Virus record (IMG/VR): IMGVR_UViG_2778261529_000003
Origin: a virus
Taxonomy: Duplodnaviria > Heunggongvirae > Uroviricota > Caudoviricetes
Length of the DNA: 14,733 bases
Reading direction: 5' to 3' (one strand)
Shown: in pieces, positions 1,611 through 9,171 of the stretch
Numbering within the stretch: position 1 is the first letter of the stretch
Layout of the letters: each line of letters begins with the position of its first letter
The notes under the pieces: generated by a model
The model's input: only the letters and a program-made list of their open reading frames with translations
Told to the model about the DNA's origin: nothing
Database searches by the model: none
Translations under genes and position numbers: made by a program

Positions 1611-2825
1611 GTGAAACTCAATGCCCGTCAAATAGACACTGCCAAGCCAAAAGAGAAGGCTTACAAGCTGGCTGATGGTGGTGGTCTGTATCTCTTGGTA
1701 AAACCTAGTGGAGGAAAATATTGGCGCTTCAAGTATCGTGTAGCTGGTAAAGAGAAGCTGTTAGCACTAGGTGTGTATCCTGAAGTTACCTTGGCTGATG
1801 CTCGTGCAAAACGTGAAGAAGCTAAAAGGGGTATCGCTGGGGGTATCGATCCGATGGAAGCGAAACGAGAGGAAAAGATTGCCCGGGAAACGCAGTTAAA
1901 CAACACCTTCAAAGATATTGCCCTTGAGTGGCACAGCAGCAAATTAAAAAAATGGTCTGCTGGTTATGCTTCAGACATCCTCGAAGCCTTTAACAAAGAT
2001 GTGTTCCCTTACATTGGCAAAAAACCAATCGCCGAAATCAAACCACTTGAACTGCTGAATGTGCTGCGGCGCATCGAGGGGCGCGGTGCTACCGAAAAAG
2101 CCAAAAAAGTGAGGCAGCGATGTGGGGAAGTTTTCCGCTATGCAATTGTCACTGGACGTGCTGAGTATAACCCTGCACCGGATCTCACCAGCGCGATGCA
2201 AGGTCATGAATCTAATCATTATCCTTTCCTCACAGCCAAAGAATTACCTGATTTTTTCAAGGCATTGTCCAGTTACTCAGGAAGTGCATTGGTTGTTATG
2301 GCGGCTCGTTTACTGATTATCACCGGTTTGCGGACTGGCGAACTGCGCGGTGCATTATGGGATGAAATCGATCTCAACAAGGCTATCTGGGAGATACCTG
2401 CTTCACGGATGAAAATGCGTCGCCCTCATGTAGTGCCTTTGTCTGAGCAGGCTCTTTCGCTTATTGGGCAGATTAAAGAACTAACTGGCAATTATCCGCT
2501 TATGTTTCCCGGCCGTAATGATCCAAGGAAAACAATGAGCGAGGCTAGCATAAACCAAGTATTTAAACGCATCGGCTATAACGGAAAGGTTACTGGTCAT
2601 GGCTTCCGGCACACTATGAGCACCATTTTGCATGAGCAGGGCTATAACACCGCGTGGATAGAGACACAGCTTGCGCACGTCGATAAAAACTCAATTCGTG
2701 GCACATACAACCATGCGCAATATCTGGATGGGCGGCGGGAAATGCTTCAGTGGTACGCTGATTATATGGATTCGCTCGAGCATGGCGGAAATGTGGTGCA
2801 TGGTGAGTTCGGAAAATGCGGGTGA
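1611..2825 (+). CDS. int: tyrosine site-specific integrase, P4-type (tRNA-targeting)
   Basis: 404-aa ORF with GTG start and GGAGG 10 nt upstream. N-terminus (LNARQIDTAKPKEKAYKLADGGGLYLLVKPSGGKYWRFKYR) is typical of P4-family integrases. C-terminal catalytic region has R..HGFRHT and a tyrosine near the end. Position is adjacent to the tRNA. Confidence 0.9.
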   Translation: MKLNARQIDTAKPKEKAYKLADGGGLYLLVKPSGGKYWRFKYRVAGKEKLLALGVYPEVTLADARAKREEAKRGIAGGIDPMEAKREEKIARETQLNNTFKDIALEWHSSKLKKWSAGYASDILEAFNKDVFPYIGKKPIAEIKPLELLNVLRRIEGRGATEKAKKVRQRCGEVFRYAIVTGRAEYNPAPDLTSAMQGHESNHYPFLTAKELPDFFKALSSYSGSALVVMAARLLIITGLRTGELRGALWDEIDLNKAIWEIPASRMKMRRPHVVPLSEQALSLIGQIKELTGNYPLMFPGRNDPRKTMSEASINQVFKRIGYNGKVTGHGFRHTMSTILHEQGYNTAWIETQLAHVDKNSIRGTYNHAQYLDGRREMLQWYADYMDSLEHGGNVVHGEFGKCG

Positions 2826-2953
2826 CTGGTTGAGTATACAGTAGTAGACTTTGAGCGACGAAAGAAAAGGCTGTGTCTAGGGTCGCTCCCGAAAATCCGT
2901 ACACCTCGACGGACTGGTACAGCCACTACAGTAGAGGACGCTGAGGTGTGCGT

Positions 2954-3751
2954 ATGATTGATATTCATGCCGAATTAAACGAATACAAAAAAGATTTTAT
3001 TTCTTTACGTGAATTTCTTGAGGTCGTGCTTAAGGTCGCTGGTGATGATTATGATGTTTCAGATGTCATAACTTGGATACTCAGGAGAATAAGCGGAGAA
3101 CATATCCGCCTGTACACAGTAAATGAATTTAAGCTGTTGGAATCTTTTTGTAACCCGTATCGGGATGAATTTGATAATGATGTTCTTTATAGAAATCTGA
3201 ATGCGGTTCGGAAACGTGGTTGTTTACCTGGTGAGAGGGATGAAAATGGTTTTCTGGTGTCCGGTTATTGGGAAGATCCCGAATTTGAGAACATTGGATT
3301 TATAAGGGGTGAAATTTTCGCAATTTTTCCCGATGTCCTTGACGCGTTAACGAAGCTGGAAGGCGCTAACTCTTCTGAAAATGACGAGGCACAAGGACGC
3401 GATATTGAAAAGAAAGAGTTGCGTACAGAGGATGATTTATTATCCCAAATCGCAATGCTGGAAAAAGAAAACGCAGAGTTAAGGGCAAGGATAGAGCAGT
3501 TAGAGCAAGAGCGCCCGATACACTTATATAAATACTGGGATAAAGACCCATTAGCTAAGGCTATTGAGATTAGAAACAGAGAGTGGGCCAATTACGATCC
3601 AGAAAATGATTTTGCCACCAGGGGAAATCAAGAAGCGATAACCAGGGAGCTTAAGCAGTGGGGGGCAAGTAATGCACTTGCAACGCTCATAGAGAGGACT
3701 GCCTGCCCTATTAACCGAGACAACAGCCAAAAGAACGCAAAGCCGGATTAA
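2954..3751 (+). CDS. hypothetical protein, AT-rich orphan with C-terminal coiled-coil
   Basis: 265-aa ORF (ATG 2954, GAGG 7 nt upstream, TAA 3749-3751). GC is markedly lower than its neighbours. Predicted coiled-coil segment LLSQIAMLEKENAELRARIEQLEQE. No family recognised by eye. Confidence 0.6.
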   Translation: MIDIHAELNEYKKDFISLREFLEVVLKVAGDDYDVSDVITWILRRISGEHIRLYTVNEFKLLESFCNPYRDEFDNDVLYRNLNAVRKRGCLPGERDENGFLVSGYWEDPEFENIGFIRGEIFAIFPDVLDALTKLEGANSSENDEAQGRDIEKKELRTEDDLLSQIAMLEKENAELRARIEQLEQERPIHLYKYWDKDPLAKAIEIRNREWANYDPENDFATRGNQEAITRELKQWGASNALATLIERTACPINRDNSQKNAKPD

Positions 3752-3766
3752 CGCACCATACCGCAT

Positions 3767-3910
3767 ACCCTGAGGGTGATTTACTGTTACCCTGAGGGTA
3801 TTTTTTTATCTTCCCCGTCAATTTTACCATCACCCTTAGGGTAGATTTCCTCCCGATTACCATCACCCTTAGGGTAGATTTCCTTCCGGTAACCATTAGG
3901 CCTGAGGGTA
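3767..3910. repeat. array of five CC(C)TNAGGG palindromic sites including a 26-bp direct repeat (3825-3850 and 3858-3883)
   Basis: ACCCTGAGGGT at 3767-3777 and 3789-3799; TACCATCACCCTTAGGGTAGATTTCC twice, 33 bp apart; CCTGAGGG at 3901-3908. Lies in the intergenic region upstream of alpA. Confidence 0.7.
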
Positions 3911-3978
3911 TGAAAATATTCGTTATTTCTGTGCCATGATTACCTCGTCAAATTGAGTAGACGTTATGAGGTAAATAT

Positions 3979-4176
3979 ATGTCAAATACGCTTATTCGTT
4001 TAACAGAAGTTCAGCGTAGAACTGGATATAGCAAGGCATGGATTTATCGCCTTATGGGGCAAGGTAAATTTCCTGCATCAGTTAAAATTGGCTCGCGAGC
4101 TATTGCTTTCGTTGAGAGTGAAATTGACGAGTGGATTAATCAGCGTATTGCGGAATCACGCGGAACAGCTACCTGA
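3979..4176 (+). CDS. alpA: AlpA/Vis-family phage transcriptional regulator (excisionase-like HTH)
   Basis: 65-aa ORF, ATG 3979 with GAGG 7 nt upstream. Sequence RTGYSKAWIYRLMGQGKFPASVKIGSRAIAFVESEIDEWINQR matches the AlpA/prophage CP4-57 regulatory-protein pattern. Confidence 0.85.
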   Translation: MSNTLIRLTEVQRRTGYSKAWIYRLMGQGKFPASVKIGSRAIAFVESEIDEWINQRIAESRGTAT

Positions 4177-4253
4177 TTAAATGGCTACGGGGCTATTGCC
4201 CCCAGCTATCCACCAGCAAATAAAAGTAACTTAATTCGATAGCAGGAGTTTTT

Positions 4254-5054
4254 ATGAAATTTCCAAAAACGCCCGTACAGGGGCGGGGCTTCGTTCGGCC
4301 TGAAAACCAGAATCTGCAAAATTTCGGCGAAATTATCCCGGTTATTTCCGGCATTATTGGCGGGTGTGAAACCAATATTGTTAGCGCCAGAGCGTTGCAT
4401 AAGGCGTTAGGTGTAGGTCGCGTTTTCCGTTCGTGGATCAAGGGGCGCATTGAAGAATACGGCTTCACGGAAGGCGTGGATTATGAGGTTGTTGAATATT
4501 TGAGCCGACCCGATCCGGTGAGCGCAAAATCTCGCCAGCAAACAGCTCTTGAGTACATCATTACCGTGAACATGGCAAAAGAACTGGCGATGGTCGAACG
4601 CACCGAACAGGGCCGCGCCGTTCGCCAGTACTTCATCAAATGCGAGGAGGAGCTACACAAGGTAGCGCCAGTGCGTTCCGCAGCTTTACGCCGGGAACTG
4701 AAAGCCCGTATCACCGTTGCCAGCTACTTTAAGCCAATGTGTGCCGCGCTGGAGGCGTACCGGGCTGAACTGGGTAAAAACACGCTCCAGCACCATTACA
4801 CCACGGAAGCCAATATGCTGGCGCGTATCGTGCTGGGTGGCATGACTGCAAAACAGTGGGCGCAGGCGAACGGCATCACAGGCGAACCACGCGACCACAT
4901 GAGCACATTGCAGCTTGAGCACCTTTCTTACCTTGAGCAGAGCAATATCACGCTGATTGAGTTAGGCCAGGACTACCACCAGCGGAAAGCTGAATTAATT
5001 CGTCTTTCGCAGCGTTGGTTAGCCCGTCGCATGGAGGAAAACAGCCATGTGTAA
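4254..5054 (+). CDS. phage antirepressor-like protein (AntA-type N-terminal domain)
   Basis: 266-aa ORF, ATG 4254 with AGGAG upstream. N-terminal ISARALHKALGVGRVFRSWIKGRIEEYGFTEGVDYEV resembles the AntA/AntB antirepressor domain. Confidence 0.7.
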   Translation: MKFPKTPVQGRGFVRPENQNLQNFGEIIPVISGIIGGCETNIVSARALHKALGVGRVFRSWIKGRIEEYGFTEGVDYEVVEYLSRPDPVSAKSRQQTALEYIITVNMAKELAMVERTEQGRAVRQYFIKCEEELHKVAPVRSAALRRELKARITVASYFKPMCAALEAYRAELGKNTLQHHYTTEANMLARIVLGGMTAKQWAQANGITGEPRDHMSTLQLEHLSYLEQSNITLIELGQDYHQRKAELIRLSQRWLARRMEENSHV

Positions 5055-5720
5055 CGCTCTGACCGTTACAAAAAGAGAAAGCGCCCCGTTGCCGGAGCGC
5101 CTTTGTGAACAAATCGCTTACTGCGCCATATTGTTTACTGCCTTTCGGGCAGATTATAGCGTTGTGGTCGCACAGAGTGAAGGCGCTGATCACTGTTACT
5201 ACAGTACGCCAGAAATGCAGAATATTTTGCTGCAAAATGCCGTTAGCCACGCTGTCCGGAAAGCAAAAAATTTTGCTGGTGGCGCGACTGATGCGATTTT
5301 GTCAGGTCACCAGGTGCTGATCAATCTGATGTCTGATTTCGTTCTGGATAAAACAAAGGCGACTGCAGAGGGCCACCAGTGGGAAAGCTACACACTTGAA
5401 CACATTGCCAACAATGCCAGATTTGCGGCTGGTGGGCAATGTGATCAGTGTGCTGGCTTGCTGGTGGGCTATTCATGCTCTTTAACATTGCCATGCCGCG
5501 ATGTTTTCCAGGTATGCGATCCCATTTTTGTGCGCCTGTACTCTTTAAGGAATTGCTCAAGGGCAAAAGCACATGGCGCGAATCTTTCTGATTCATGCTC
5601 TATCTTTCTGCGCCGTCTTTTCCGTGCCGGTGATGGTGTATTGGTTGATTCTTTGTTGGTCATTCTGTGTACCTGTAAAGCAATGCGCCGGAGTTCCTCA
5701 CACCACGGCGATGATAGTTA

Positions 5721-5900
5721 TTATTCTGATTCTTTGGCCTTGCGGCGCTGGCGGCGTTTGATCTCGCCTTTTGCGGCAGTAACTAAAAAACCAGCGGTAC
5801 TTTCGCCAGGTTCTTTAAGTTGCTCAATATCATCCATTACTTCATGTGGGATTCTGACAGTTGTCATTTGTGATTTTGCGTTTTTTGCACCAGTTGCCAT
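5721..5900 (-). CDS. small ribbon-helix-helix (Arc/MetJ/CopG-like) DNA-binding protein, candidate island repressor
   Basis: 59-aa ORF from the internal ATG of the 5721..6077 minus ORF, with AGGAG 9 nt upstream. MATGAKNAKSQMTTVRIPHEVMDDIEQLKEPGESTAGFLVTAAKGEIKRRQRRKAKESE has a beta-strand then two helices, the RHH pattern. Transcribed divergently from the replication operon. Confidence 0.6.
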   Translation of the reverse strand: MATGAKNAKSQMTTVRIPHEVMDDIEQLKEPGESTAGFLVTAAKGEIKRRQRRKAKESE

Positions 5901-5966
5901 TTCTGGATCTCCTAAAAATTGGTGTATGTCAGTATACGCAAAAAAAATGATAAAAAAAGGCTTGAA

Positions 5967-6012
5967 GTGTATTTCACCAGTGAGTAAATTAAAAAGCAAA
6001 GGTGAAATACAC
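5967..6012. promoter_or_regulatory. perfect 12-bp inverted repeat GTGTATTTCACC (21-bp spacer) GGTGAAATACAC, candidate operator in the divergent intergenic region
   Basis: Read directly. Located between the RHH gene start (5900) and the first rightward small ORF (6094), flanked by A-tracts. Confidence 0.5.
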
Positions 6013-6093
6013 CTAAAAGAGCAACGCCCCGCAGTGCTCGCAACACATGCAGGGCGTCTAACCACCAACGATAGCAAGAGTATCGAGGTAGCT

Positions 6094-6297
6094 ATGGGAA
6101 ATCATACCACACACCCGCAAGGGCGGGACTCGCACAACCTGAATAAATACATCTGGCGTTTTATCGCCCTGAGCACGGCACAACCGCGCGTAATTCACAT
6201 CGAGGCCATCAGCGAACAGGAAGCACGCCAGCAATCTCCTGATGGCTGTGTGATGGTATTCGCCGCCCGTATTCGTCAGGGGGTAAGCCATGCATAA
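6094..6297 (+). CDS. hypothetical small protein (67 aa)
   Basis: ATG 6094 with GAGG upstream. Ends in SHA-stop with the 8-nt overlap junction CATGCATAA onto the next gene. This is the terminal segment of the long 5047..6297 frame, so the start is uncertain. Confidence 0.35.
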   Translation: MGNHTTHPQGRDSHNLNKYIWRFIALSTAQPRVIHIEAISEQEARQQSPDGCVMVFAARIRQGVSHA

Positions 6298-6655
6298 CCT
6301 GTCAATTTCTGACCTTAACAGCATTCAGTTTGACGAGAAATTTACCGGGCAGTTGCTGGTCAATGTGGAGAACGGGCGCATAGTGCGTAATTACCACCTG
6401 CCGGATGGTGCAATTGCCGGAAGCGTTGAAGCATTGCTGGAACTGGCGGAACGTGCGCGACTGATTAAGCCGTCAACGAGCCATCACGATGATGATCTGC
6501 ATTTTACCGGGCGTATGGTGAGTCACTACGAAAACGGCGTTGAAGTATCCCGCGAACGGCTGCGTGATGATTGCTGTTTCGGCACACTGCCGGAATTTAT
6601 CGAGTTGCTGACCAGTTGCGGTTATCAGGTCATTCAGGGGGGTGAACATGCGTGA
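6290..6655 (+). CDS. hypothetical protein (121 aa), paralogous N-terminus to 6874..7074
   Basis: ATG 6290. N-terminus MHN...FTGQLLV resembles MHN...FTGRVLV of the 6874 gene. Ends EHA-stop overlapping the next ATG (CATGCGTGA). Confidence 0.6.
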   Translation: MHNLSISDLNSIQFDEKFTGQLLVNVENGRIVRNYHLPDGAIAGSVEALLELAERARLIKPSTSHHDDDLHFTGRMVSHYENGVEVSRERLRDDCCFGTLPEFIELLTSCGYQVIQGGEHA

Positions 6656-7078: not shown

Positions 7079-7369
7079 ATGAAAAAGAAAAATTCTGGCT
7101 TTACTGCCAGCGGTCTCTCTCGGCCTGAAATCAGACACGGAGATATTTACCGCGACACCAGACGTGGGGGACGAGTGGTTATTCGTCACGTTACGCCAGG
7201 CAATATCACCTACCGCCGTGAGGCTTACGAATATGACTGTGTAATGCCGCGCCGTCAGTTTGAGCGTGATTTTATTCTGGTTGAAAACAAACAACAGGCG
7301 GTGGCGAGACGTGCAGCCACGAATATTAAAAAAATCCGGGCAATGTTGGTTGCGGGAGGTAAGAAGTGA
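7079..7369 (+). CDS. hypothetical basic protein (96 aa)
   Basis: ATG 7079. Stop TGA overlaps the GTG start of the downstream replication gene (GTGA), indicating the same operon. Confidence 0.5.
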   Translation: MKKKNSGFTASGLSRPEIRHGDIYRDTRRGGRVVIRHVTPGNITYRREAYEYDCVMPRRQFERDFILVENKQQAVARRAATNIKKIRAMLVAGGKK

Positions 7370-9171
7370 AAAACGCACCGAATTTAAAATATCAGCCGAA
7401 GGATAAATTCACCGAGGTAATCATTTTGGCCGGGACGGATGCTTACGCCCATGCTCAACACTGGATTGAAAGCGAAGGACGAAAACACGGCGATAACGTA
7501 CCACCTGTTTACCTGGGGCCGAAGCAACTGGCAGACCTGGCGAATATCCGCATTATTGACGAGAAACGCCGCTTTGCGCGTGTCTATCTTGCGGGGGAGA
7601 TCGAGCCAATCCAGATCAATGCTATCGCTGAAAAACTGGCGCTGGCTGGCGTACAGGACGCGAAATTATACAAAGGTATCACCGATCGGGAGCCGGAAAA
7701 CTGGCGCGACTACCTGCAACGGATCCGCGAACAGGCAGAGAGTGGGGAAGTTTCGGCGATGAAATTAGCCACAAAAAATATTGACCTACCCAGGCCAGCA
7801 CTAAATCAGATGGGAGCCAGCCAGAGAGGGGAAGTGTTACTTGAATATTATGGAAGAGCACTGGCTATAAATGATGATTCTGATGTAGTTCACCATTACA
7901 ACGGAATTGTCTGGGTGCCTGTATCTGATAAGGAACTCCAGCGGTCTATGGCGAAGATTTTTATTGATGCTGGAATCAGTTATTCGCAAAACGCCATTAA
8001 ATTTGCCGTAGACACAATGAAATTGAGCCTGCCTGTTATGGGCGGGGCTGACAGGAATCTTATTGGATTCAGTAACGGGGTATTTGATACCAGGACAGGA
8101 AATTTTCGGGAGCACAACAAAAATGACTGGTTGTTAAATGCCAGTGAATTACCGTTCAGCCCACCAGCAGAGGGGGAAACGCTGGCAACACATGCGCCGA
8201 ATTTCTGGAAGTGGTTGCGTCGTTCGGTGGCAGATAATGATCGTAAAGCTGATCGCGTACTGGCGGCATTATTCATGGTACTGGCGAACCGGTACGACTG
8301 GCAGTTATTCCTTGAGGTAACTGGCCCAGGCGGAAGCGGTAAAAGTGTGATGGCGGAGATTTGTACCATGCTGGCTGGTAAGGCCAACACAGTATCGGCA
8401 AGCATGAAGGCGCTGGAAGACGCAAGGGAACGCGCGTTAGTCGTTGGCTTTTCGCTGATTATCATGCCGGATATGGCCCGCTACGCTGGAGATGGTGCAG
8501 GAATTAAGGCAATTACTGGCGGCGACAAGGTGGCAATCGACCCGAAACATAAAGCCCCCTACTCCACACGTATTCCGGCGGTAGTGCTGGCAGTAAACAA
8601 TAACGCCATGTCATTCAGTGATCGCAGTGGAGGGATCTCGCGTCGTAGGGTGATATTTAATTTCTCTGAGGTCGTACCGGAGAACGAACGCGATCCCATG
8701 CTGGTGGAAAAAATAGAAGGCGAACTGGCGGTAGTGATTCGCCACCTGCTTACTCGTTTTTCTGACCAGGATGAAGCCAGACGTCTGTTATATGAGCAGC
8801 AGAAATCAGAAGAGGCACTGGTGATAAAACGCGAGGGTGATTCACTGGTGGACTTTTGCGGCTATCTGATGTCGTTGGTTAAATGTGAAGGAATGATGGT
8901 GGGCAATGCGGAAATAGTGCCATTTAGCCCGAGGCGGTACCTGTATCATGCTTATTTAGCCTATATGTCAGCGCATGGCCTGGGAAAACCAGTATCACTG
9001 ACACGCTTTGGTACAGATATGCCAGGAGCTATGGCGGAATACGGAAAGGAGTATAAGCGGGCTAAATGCACTAAAGGCCAGGATAAAGGGCGAGTGATAA
9101 CAAATGTTCTGTTAGATGATGATGCTGATGGTTGGTTGCCAGCAGCAACAGGGATTAACGACAGAACATAA
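7366..9171 (+). CDS. replication initiator: D5_N domain plus SF3 helicase (P4 alpha C-terminal-like primase/helicase family)
   Basis: 601-aa ORF, GTG start with GGAGG upstream. Walker A GPGGSGKS; D5_N-like segment NGVFDTRTGNFREHNKNDW. Followed immediately by an iteron array. Confidence 0.88.
   Translation: MKNAPNLKYQPKDKFTEVIILAGTDAYAHAQHWIESEGRKHGDNVPPVYLGPKQLADLANIRIIDEKRRFARVYLAGEIEPIQINAIAEKLALAGVQDAKLYKGITDREPENWRDYLQRIREQAESGEVSAMKLATKNIDLPRPALNQMGASQRGEVLLEYYGRALAINDDSDVVHHYNGIVWVPVSDKELQRSMAKIFIDAGISYSQNAIKFAVDTMKLSLPVMGGADRNLIGFSNGVFDTRTGNFREHNKNDWLLNASELPFSPPAEGETLATHAPNFWKWLRRSVADNDRKADRVLAALFMVLANRYDWQLFLEVTGPGGSGKSVMAEICTMLAGKANTVSASMKALEDARERALVVGFSLIIMPDMARYAGDGAGIKAITGGDKVAIDPKHKAPYSTRIPAVVLAVNNNAMSFSDRSGGISRRRVIFNFSEVVPENERDPMLVEKIEGELAVVIRHLLTRFSDQDEARRLLYEQQKSEEALVIKREGDSLVDFCGYLMSLVKCEGMMVGNAEIVPFSPRRYLYHAYLAYMSAHGLGKPVSLTRFGTDMPGAMAEYGKEYKRAKCTKGQDKGRVITNVLLDDDADGWLPAATGINDRT

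Follow-up and report, generated by a model that had tools for sequence, protein, structure and literature searches.

In the satellite P4, the late-left promoter PLL lies upstream of vis, a homologue of alpA, and is activated via repeated sites for Cox or for Ogr/Delta. These sites are either direct repeats (cox boxes) or TGT-N12-ACA sequences, and they are bound by helper or Delta proteins. In the published Gram-negative phage-inducible chromosomal islands (PICIs), AlpA is the master activator and activates its own promoter (PMC6092414; PMC11773190). This promoter is the induction switch of the islands, the helper phage switches on alpA through a factor not identified in the published work, and no repressor has been reported (PMC6092414). 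Here, we analyzed a stretch of 14,733 nucleotides from the IMG/VR virus record IMGVR_UViG_2778261529_000003 (Duplodnaviria; Heunggongvirae; Uroviricota; Caudoviricetes), which as a whole is called the window. In this window an array of palindromic sites separates alpA from an upstream gene encoding an orphan protein, which we named X. On the basis of comparative sequence data we consider it reasonably probable that the array is the operator of X and that X is a modular, island-encoded regulator, which gates the alpA switch. In the literature we found no description of X, of the palindromes or of a regulator in the slot between int and alpA, and no AlpA operator, Gram-negative PICI repressor or phage inducer was found described either.

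The palindrome array and the C-terminal domain of X

The elements on which this reading is based are as follows:

2954–3751, plus strand: gene X (the orphan), 265 amino acids, ATG at 2954, taken from the open reading frame list; the same 798-bp coding sequence is hypothetical in RefSeq
3766–3778, unstranded: site 1, TACCCTGAGGGTG, 11/12 to the consensus
3788–3800, unstranded: site 2, TACCCTGAGGGTA, 12/12
3831–3843, unstranded: site 3, CACCCTTAGGGTA, 11/12
3864–3876, unstranded: site 4, CACCCTTAGGGTA, 11/12; at −109 from the alpA ATG, a position kept across genera
3898–3910, unstranded: site 5, AGGCCTGAGGGTA, degenerate (9/12), weakest of the five and closest to the promoter; located at −75 relative to the ATG
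3824–3856 and 3857–3889, plus strand: two tandem 33-bp units with one palindrome each, 31/33 identical, the first 28 nucleotides exactly
3979–4176, plus strand: alpA (Pfam PF05930, E 2.4e-19); its role as master activator is taken from PMC6092414 and PMC11773190

When the window was searched for CCTNAGGG, nine strand-matches were obtained, which correspond to five sites and all of which lie in 3768–3908. About one match is expected in the whole window, and none of 200 shuffled sequences reached nine. The site centers (3772, 3794, 3837, 3870, 3904) are spaced by 22, 43, 33, and 34 bp, and four of the five sites carry the full CCCTNAGGG palindrome. The extended consensus is a 13-bp dyad, TACCCTNAGGGTA, from which sites 1–4 deviate by at most one mismatch (11–12/12). 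Since no match with up to two mismatches was found outside sites 1–4 in the 14.7-kb window, the array constitutes a single target. Thus, the dyads are more frequent than expected by chance and all lie in a single control region, and the first-pass annotation of this DNA, which had reported five palindromic sites upstream of a gene it called alpA, was correct in both respects. An Rfam scan of the array yielded no curated model that passed its threshold; a subthreshold match to RAGATH-25 (3766–3828, minus strand, 16 bits vs. a gathering score of 49, E 0.67) arises from the palindromes and was treated as a chance match.

To compare the array between species, we collected 80 loci from other species with AlpA homologues (67–87% identity) and counted as a site any sequence in the 300 bp preceding alpA that matches the consensus at 9/12 positions or more. 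Individual loci are denoted by L numbers. Only a few of them carry the array, at the same distances from the ATG, namely those of Pantoea (L019), Symbiopectobacterium (L032), Kluyvera (L034), and Klebsiella (L038) and, in part, that of Sodalis (L023). The palindromes are fixed at −75, −108, −152, −175, and −207 from the alpA ATG in E. coli variants, Pantoea, Symbiopectobacterium, Kluyvera, and Klebsiella, and the spacers between them diverge. The position of site 5 is kept in L006, L007, L019, L034, and L038. The proximal site is consistently the weakest and the distal ones are strong, but the promoter-side half-site of the proximal palindrome is kept. When the related loci are taken together, the phase coherence of the site centers peaks at a period of ~11 bp (mean vector length of 0.66 vs. 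a null value of 0.52 ± 0.06, p ~0.001). This conservation of position and sequence across diverged orthologous regions supports the earlier suggestion that the sites at the alpA control region belong to a dimeric regulator, since in homologous islands the sites are kept while the spacers diverge.

In E. coli the 33-bp unit varies in copy number, with one copy in L004, two in the window, three in L003, and four in L002; L005 has lost site 2 by a 22-bp deletion. As judged from these sequences, the phased long repeat arose recently by duplication of one site, varies in length, and is not a conserved architecture. The 26-bp direct repeat of the first-pass annotation is therefore real, but it is better described as two tandem 33-bp units. 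Its 33-bp phasing holds insofar as each added unit corresponds to three helical turns and the helical phase is preserved, but with one to four copies it does not represent a conserved arrangement. The loci L006 and L007 match the window exactly between about −90 and the alpA ATG but have diverged further upstream. Despite this upstream divergence, they keep palindromes at −109, −152/−153, and −175. The conserved part of the array is thus the sites and not the spacers.

A tblastn search with all window proteins showed that the array loci share homology to residues ~160–257 of X, which are encoded directly upstream of the array. For L006 and L007, RefSeq lists different upstream proteins, yet both keep the C-terminal domain of X (tblastn). 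At least two sites upstream of alpA were present in 7 of 9 loci encoding this domain but in none of the 70 others (Fisher 1.2e-8, ignoring relatedness and linkage; the count covers 79 loci). Degenerate sites were seen in four more loci with the C-terminal domain (L015, L039, L048, L051). Site presence covaries with this domain, not with AlpA, the integrase, or AntA. The N-terminal domains are unrelated between loci sharing the same sites, and in some cases the N-terminal domain is a separate gene; specificity thus tracks the C-terminal domain. In all X loci the first site follows the X stop codon by 6–15 bp.

The reverse comparison started from the DNA. The pattern ACCCTNAGGGT-N(8–36)-ACCCTNAGGGT was matched in 53 loci among 2.9 million viral contigs. 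The C-terminal domain was encoded in 35 of these 53 loci by a reading frame ending next to the sites, and alpA was found in 35/53 on the far side of the sites. The remaining loci come from unrelated organisms (GC 30–70%) and represent tandem repeats or other operators. Pairs of (A/G)ACCCTNAGGGT(T/C) palindromes spaced by about 19 bp also recur in unrelated high-GC viral contigs (L117, L132, L146, and other nonenterobacterial IMG/VR contigs); these are probably operators of other regulators that use a similar dyad by chance. A separate case is L138, where an X-like protein (5476–6420, 46% identity in the C-terminal domain) is followed by three to four TACCCTCAGGGTA-type sites and the same promoter/hairpin core. 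The surroundings of this locus are GC-richer and phage-like, with an abundance of XRE-type regulators and without a recognizable alpA downstream.

Distant homologues of X (26–45% identity; L090, L093/L094, L095) keep the order of X, a spacer of 140–160 bp, and a small AlpA-like gene. Their spacers carry 5-N-5 dyads with altered half-sites, namely ACTATNATAGT in L090 (half-site ACTAT) and ACCGTGAGGGT in L095 (half-site ACCGT).

Domain structure and relatives of X

According to an AlphaFold2 model and the alignment of homologues, X consists of a variable N-terminal domain (residues 1–138), a disordered linker (139–158), a zipper helix (159–186), and a C-terminal four-helix domain (~188–255). Two parts of the gene are relevant for its proposed function:

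3428–3511, plus strand: coiled-coil segment of X, a single long helix in the model, with heptad repeats
3515–3718, plus strand: conserved C-terminal domain of X, proposed to bind DNA, with 17 invariant positions across 25 homologues

In the heptads, I166, N173, and I180 occupy the "a" positions and L169, L176, and L183 the "d" positions. L169 and L183 are invariant among the homologues, L176 is nearly so, and an EN motif is conserved. Asparagine at "a" combined with leucine at "d" is a signature of parallel dimers. We interpret the segment as a GCN4-type parallel dimeric leucine zipper, and a sequence search of the PDB with X gave matches only to zipper or coiled-coil proteins. The C-terminal domain follows the pattern ERPI..Y.DDDPL.LAI.IRN.EW..YD....L...A..IE.VACPI.R. 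From its covariation with the sites we infer that it binds DNA. Two closely tethered C-terminal domains on a parallel zipper dimer would fit a compact dyad-symmetric site.

X has few relatives. Among 5.8 billion proteins we detected 43, all of them hypothetical and without a Pfam domain. The C-terminal domain alone is represented in 48 clusters among 1.84 billion representatives and always forms the extreme C-terminus. The alignment shows unrelated N-terminal regions fused to a tail consisting of the conserved heptads and the C-terminal domain. Assignment of X to a known family was attempted and rejected, since Pfam, NCBIfam, PHROGs, and PADLOC gave no family and the PDB matches represent coiled-coil noise; the Pfam scan detected no helix-turn-helix (HTH). 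One protein of 344 residues (P0178) matches only the first half of the C-terminal domain (76% identity, residues 57–93) and continues as a LacI-type periplasmic-binding-like domain; the gene call may be a chimera from an island junction.

Control of alpA and alternative explanations

The region around the array contains further predicted control elements:

2870–2937, plus strand: int-alpA RNA motif (Rfam RF02996; cmscan 45.5 bits vs. a gathering score of 35.8, E 7.9e-08)
3765–3807, plus strand: predicted intrinsic terminator formed by sites 1 and 2 paired as RNA, with a 15-bp stem, a 5-nucleotide loop, and T7 at 3801–3807
3932–3940, plus strand: inferred extended −10 element of the alpA promoter (TGcCATGAT); TGn plus an A/T hexamer stands at the same place in all cassette classes
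3940–3974, plus strand: hairpin of the alpA leader (−8.3 kcal/mol), whose 3′ arm includes the Shine-Dalgarno sequence GAGG (3968–3971)

No full sigma-70 consensus was found in 3600–4300, and the alpA promoter has no recognizable −35 element. If TGcCATGAT is the −10 element, transcription would start near 3947 and site 5 would be centered at about −43. Relative to this inferred start, the other sites are centered at about −77, −110, −153, and −175. A weak site beside the −35 position of a poor promoter resembles, in our analysis, the situation at activator-dependent promoters. L048 carries an extra site at about −30.

The first-pass annotation had taken the five sites for binding sites of a dimeric regulator. 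This view needs to be extended, since in this lineage sites 1 and 2 also form a strong predicted intrinsic terminator, a stable GC-rich hairpin followed by U7 downstream of a stop codon. It starts 14 nucleotides after the stop codon of X and folds with −23.9 kcal/mol (RNAfold, z −6.5). The hairpin with its U-run is restricted to the E. coli lineage (window, L004, L006) and is missing in other genera, though the sites are kept there. Thus, the conserved function of the array must be something other than termination.

A second barrier is predicted in the alpA leader. When the leaders were folded individually (L010–L089), the Shine-Dalgarno sequence was fully paired in the minimum free energy structure of 28 of 38 distinct sequences. 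The stems differ in sequence (CTCGTAA/TTACGAG, CTCCTGTAG/CTACAGGAG, CACCTCA/TGAGGTG). The inferred start of the alpA promoter is located within the 5′ arm, so that translational silencing would affect only transcripts reading through from int-X. A promoter scan found no separate promoter for X, which appears to be expressed together with int. The 3′ tail of the int-alpA RNA, which lies between int and X, extends into the ribosome-binding region of X. It is thus a leader of X and not, as its name implies, of alpA, and it may control the expression of X. Insulation of alpA by the terminator and the hairpin suggests that X is produced in a state in which alpA has to remain silent.

From these data we propose the following mechanism. 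X would dimerize via its GCN4-like zipper, and each C-terminal domain would read one ACCCT half-site of the 13-bp TACCCTNAGGGTA dyad. The four to seven palindromes, which are spaced by multiples of ~11 bp and thus share one helical face, extend from just past the X stop codon to the weak site by the −35 position. Cooperative occupancy of this array would set the transcription of alpA, the master activator with positive feedback, and the variable N-terminal domain would probably serve as input that senses a helper-phage product. In the resting state, X would be made together with int and would hold the alpA promoter shut on the array until its N-terminal domain is engaged. In the E. coli lineage of the window, the first two sites together with T7 would also terminate int-X transcripts. 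Alternatively, X may act with the opposite sign, as a pure activator of the class II type. The insulation of alpA and the additional L048 site at about −30 fit repression, and we lean, if only slightly, towards repression with X as a poised sensor. The weak alpA promoter without a −35 element, together with the published AlpA-dependent and helper-induced transcription of alpA (PMC6092414; PMC11773190), was counted in favor of the operator function. The earlier conclusion that the array is the control point of the alpA switch is in line with its placement at the alpA control region and with the published role of this promoter (PMC6092414).

Several observations weigh against this proposal. The C-terminal domain belongs to no recognized DNA-binding fold or family, and fold searches with the models of full-length X and of the C-terminal domain returned no significant structural neighbor. 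The co-occurrence counts come from phylogenetically nonindependent loci, and since the array begins 6–15 bp past the X stop codon, co-occurrence is partly expected from physical linkage. The covariation of C-terminal domain residues with the half-site sequence is suggestive but not clean; L023 has a variant TIPTQ loop, yet it keeps CCCTGAGGG sites. The weak proximal site at about −43 fits activation. Finally, EcCICFT073 has no X gene yet is inducible by helper phage (PMC6092414), and X is thus not a universal requirement.

Of the other explanations, the one that survives best assumes that another trans-acting protein (a helper-phage activator or repressor, a host factor, or another island protein) binds the array and that X is merely a linked neighbor. 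Helper phages do induce alpA through a factor not identified in PMC6092414, the C-terminal domain lacks a known DNA-binding fold, and the position of the X 3′ end next to the array could alone account for their co-occurrence. However, none of the 70 loci with another C-terminal domain class carries the array. No enterobacterial phage contig has it, and all enterobacterial-type pattern matches in IMG/VR are X-bearing islands. Moreover, the C-terminal domain had no tblastn match in 50,697 phage records, and the recombination junctions lie within X (between its N- and C-terminal domains) and, at about −90, inside the array, but none separates X from the array. The presence of AntA/Bro does not follow that of the array, and this protein was rejected as binder, since it is absent in the array loci L019, L034, and L038 and present in many loci without array. 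We consider a different trans-acting protein unlikely.

More improbable still is an action at the RNA level only, with the palindromes forming hairpins that terminate the int-X transcript or insulate alpA from it. The folding energy of sites 1 and 2 with T7 is in favor of this possibility, both sites are flagged by the terminator scan, and the whole region folds better than shuffled sequences (z −4). However, the single palindromes form only marginal hairpins (−4 to −5 kcal/mol, z ~−1.4) and sites 3–5 have no U-run. In Pantoea, Kluyvera, Klebsiella, Symbiopectobacterium, and L007 the hairpin with U-run is absent, but the palindromes stand at the same positions. The ~11-bp phasing and the constant spacing from the promoter are properties of DNA.

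The first-pass annotation had named AlpA, the integrase, and the upstream orphan protein as candidate binders. Only the orphan, X, covaries with the array, and the other two candidates were rejected. Positive autoregulation by AlpA would fit the position of the array directly upstream of alpA and the activation of its own promoter by AlpA in EcCICFT073 and EcCIMP1 (PMC6092414; PMC11773190). However, AlpA is identical with and without array (L034 = L033 = L036; L019 and L022 differ at two residues), the residues of its HTH and wing are the same in every cassette class, in 70 of 79 related loci AlpA does without such an array, and no site was found near attL or elsewhere in the island, so that AlpA is a very improbable binder. 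The integrase, which carries an arm-binding domain (PF13356) and might use phased repeats as is typical of intasomes, is almost certainly not involved, since the array lies ~2.3 kb from the tRNA-Thr attachment site, occurs with integrases of 66%, 85%, and 100% identity at thrW or tRNA-Gly, and is missing from other loci with the 85% allele. A replication origin with iterons was also rejected, because the same array occurs with a RepA helicase (L001) in place of the D5 primase.

Island context and comparison with known systems

The window is a segment of the E. coli chromosome with proA (Aldedh), tRNA-Thr(CGT), and then a co-oriented island:

1369–1444: tRNA-Thr(CGT), the attachment site at the island end
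1611–2825, plus strand: tyrosine integrase (int; PF13356, PF22022, PF00589)
7366–9171: D5-type primase/helicase (D5_N, DUF5906, Pox_D5)

Between alpA and the primase follow an AntA/Bro-type gene, a reading frame ending in an Icd-like domain, small reading frames, and DUF4222; past the primase the window encodes only ProQ, PerC, DUF2213, and a small HTH protein. It can be seen that the integrase stands beside a tRNA gene, that alpA is co-oriented downstream of int, and that the island has its own primase/helicase module without a full set of phage structural or lysis genes in the window. Judged by this gene organization, the island is a PICI-type phage satellite at thrW. The reading frame ending in the Icd-like domain (5047–6297, plus strand, 416 amino acids) matches Icd-like cell-division inhibitor and PHROG "transcriptional repressor" families with its last ~50–90 residues. 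The annotations of related islands place short Icd-like genes and minus-strand YlcI/YnfO genes in this region, and the frame may be a fusion or an over-call.

The module of X, array, and alpA was present with at least 80% identity in 178 of 5,426 complete E. coli genomes, and IMG/VR viral contigs of 10–17 kb include islands with this module. Nearly identical modules were found in L001, L006, L008, and L009, islands at tRNA-Gly beside actS, the integrase of which is only 66% identical to the thrW integrase of the window; L001 has a RepA helicase as replicase instead of the D5 primase. The occurrence of the module in islands with different integrases and replicases indicates an exchange of the switch module among islands.

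In most enterobacterial loci the slot between int and alpA is occupied by a co-oriented, uncharacterized reading frame of 200–340 amino acids (L010–L076, ~100–1200 bp upstream of alpA). Apart from one match to DUF6387, the slot proteins are uncharacterized. They fall into C-terminal classes, each of which has its own type of repeat before the same core promoter and leader: three CTTCCA direct repeats ~21 bp apart in class B, GGTGGGTA/TACCCACC inverted repeats in class C, and long repeats in class E. The C-terminal domain of class C is homologous to that of X (hhalign 95%, E 2.6e-8), and the N-terminal domains are shuffled between classes.

With this in mind, a more far-reaching interpretation may be put forward tentatively, although we regard it as doubtful. 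X and its array might be the switch by which many enterobacterial PICIs, a large subset of them, sense their helper, in which a DNA-bound dimer with a new small DNA-binding domain carries a freely swapped N-terminal domain that recognizes a helper-phage protein and decides which phages induce the island. The slot would then encode several unrelated regulator classes, each with its own operator type, and helper specificity would evolve by exchange of cassettes and domains. 

The operator reading of the array bears on how Gram-negative PICIs stay silent and how helper phages turn on alpA. The locus offers a testable module with a 13-bp operator and a candidate regulator, in which dimerization and DNA-binding part are separable; the variable part of X is usable as bait for helper-phage partners, and natural variants in site number and N-terminal domain are available. 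If this reading is right, it adds a new family of DNA-binding domains and would explain helper specificity and its fast evolution in satellites that move virulence and defense genes among Enterobacterales.

Compared with known systems, the array resembles P4 PLL in that phased repeats precede an activator-dependent promoter, which drives a gene of the AlpA family and the satellite operon. In contrast to the P4 sites, the repeats are 5-N-5 palindromes covarying with an island protein, and no P4-type sequences were seen here. A second likeness is to the OR1-OR2-OR3 operators of lambda CI, the features of which are well established. There, dimers bind dyad sites and adjacent sites are filled cooperatively, as we propose for the array; a weaker site lies near −42 of an activator-dependent promoter, and the regulator gene adjoins its operators. 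However, X has no HTH or recognizable fold, its sites measure 13 and not 17 bp, and it combines a zipper with a swappable N-terminal domain. Moreover, the array has four to seven sites spaced by 22–43 bp on one face of the helix, and X is co-oriented with and upstream of its target.

Among the Gram-negative PICIs, EcCICFT073 is similar in that alpA lies downstream of int, is autoactivated, and is induced by helper phage (PMC6092414). It differs by a 365-bp spacer between int and alpA without X, by another AlpA allele, and by ACAAC-type repeats instead of the palindromes. Stl, the master repressor of the Staphylococcus aureus pathogenicity islands (SaPIs), which are Gram-positive PICIs, differs from X in having an N-terminal HTH and in being divergent from the operon it regulates, whereas the conserved domain of X is C-terminal and not an HTH, and its gene is co-oriented with alpA. 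In both cases, however, a regulator of a satellite stands beside int at the switch region and gates the first gene of the induction operon (PMC6092414), as proposed here for X. In both, a highly variable part, which in SaPIs binds helper-phage proteins, is joined to a conserved part, which binds DNA in Stl and is predicted to do so in X.
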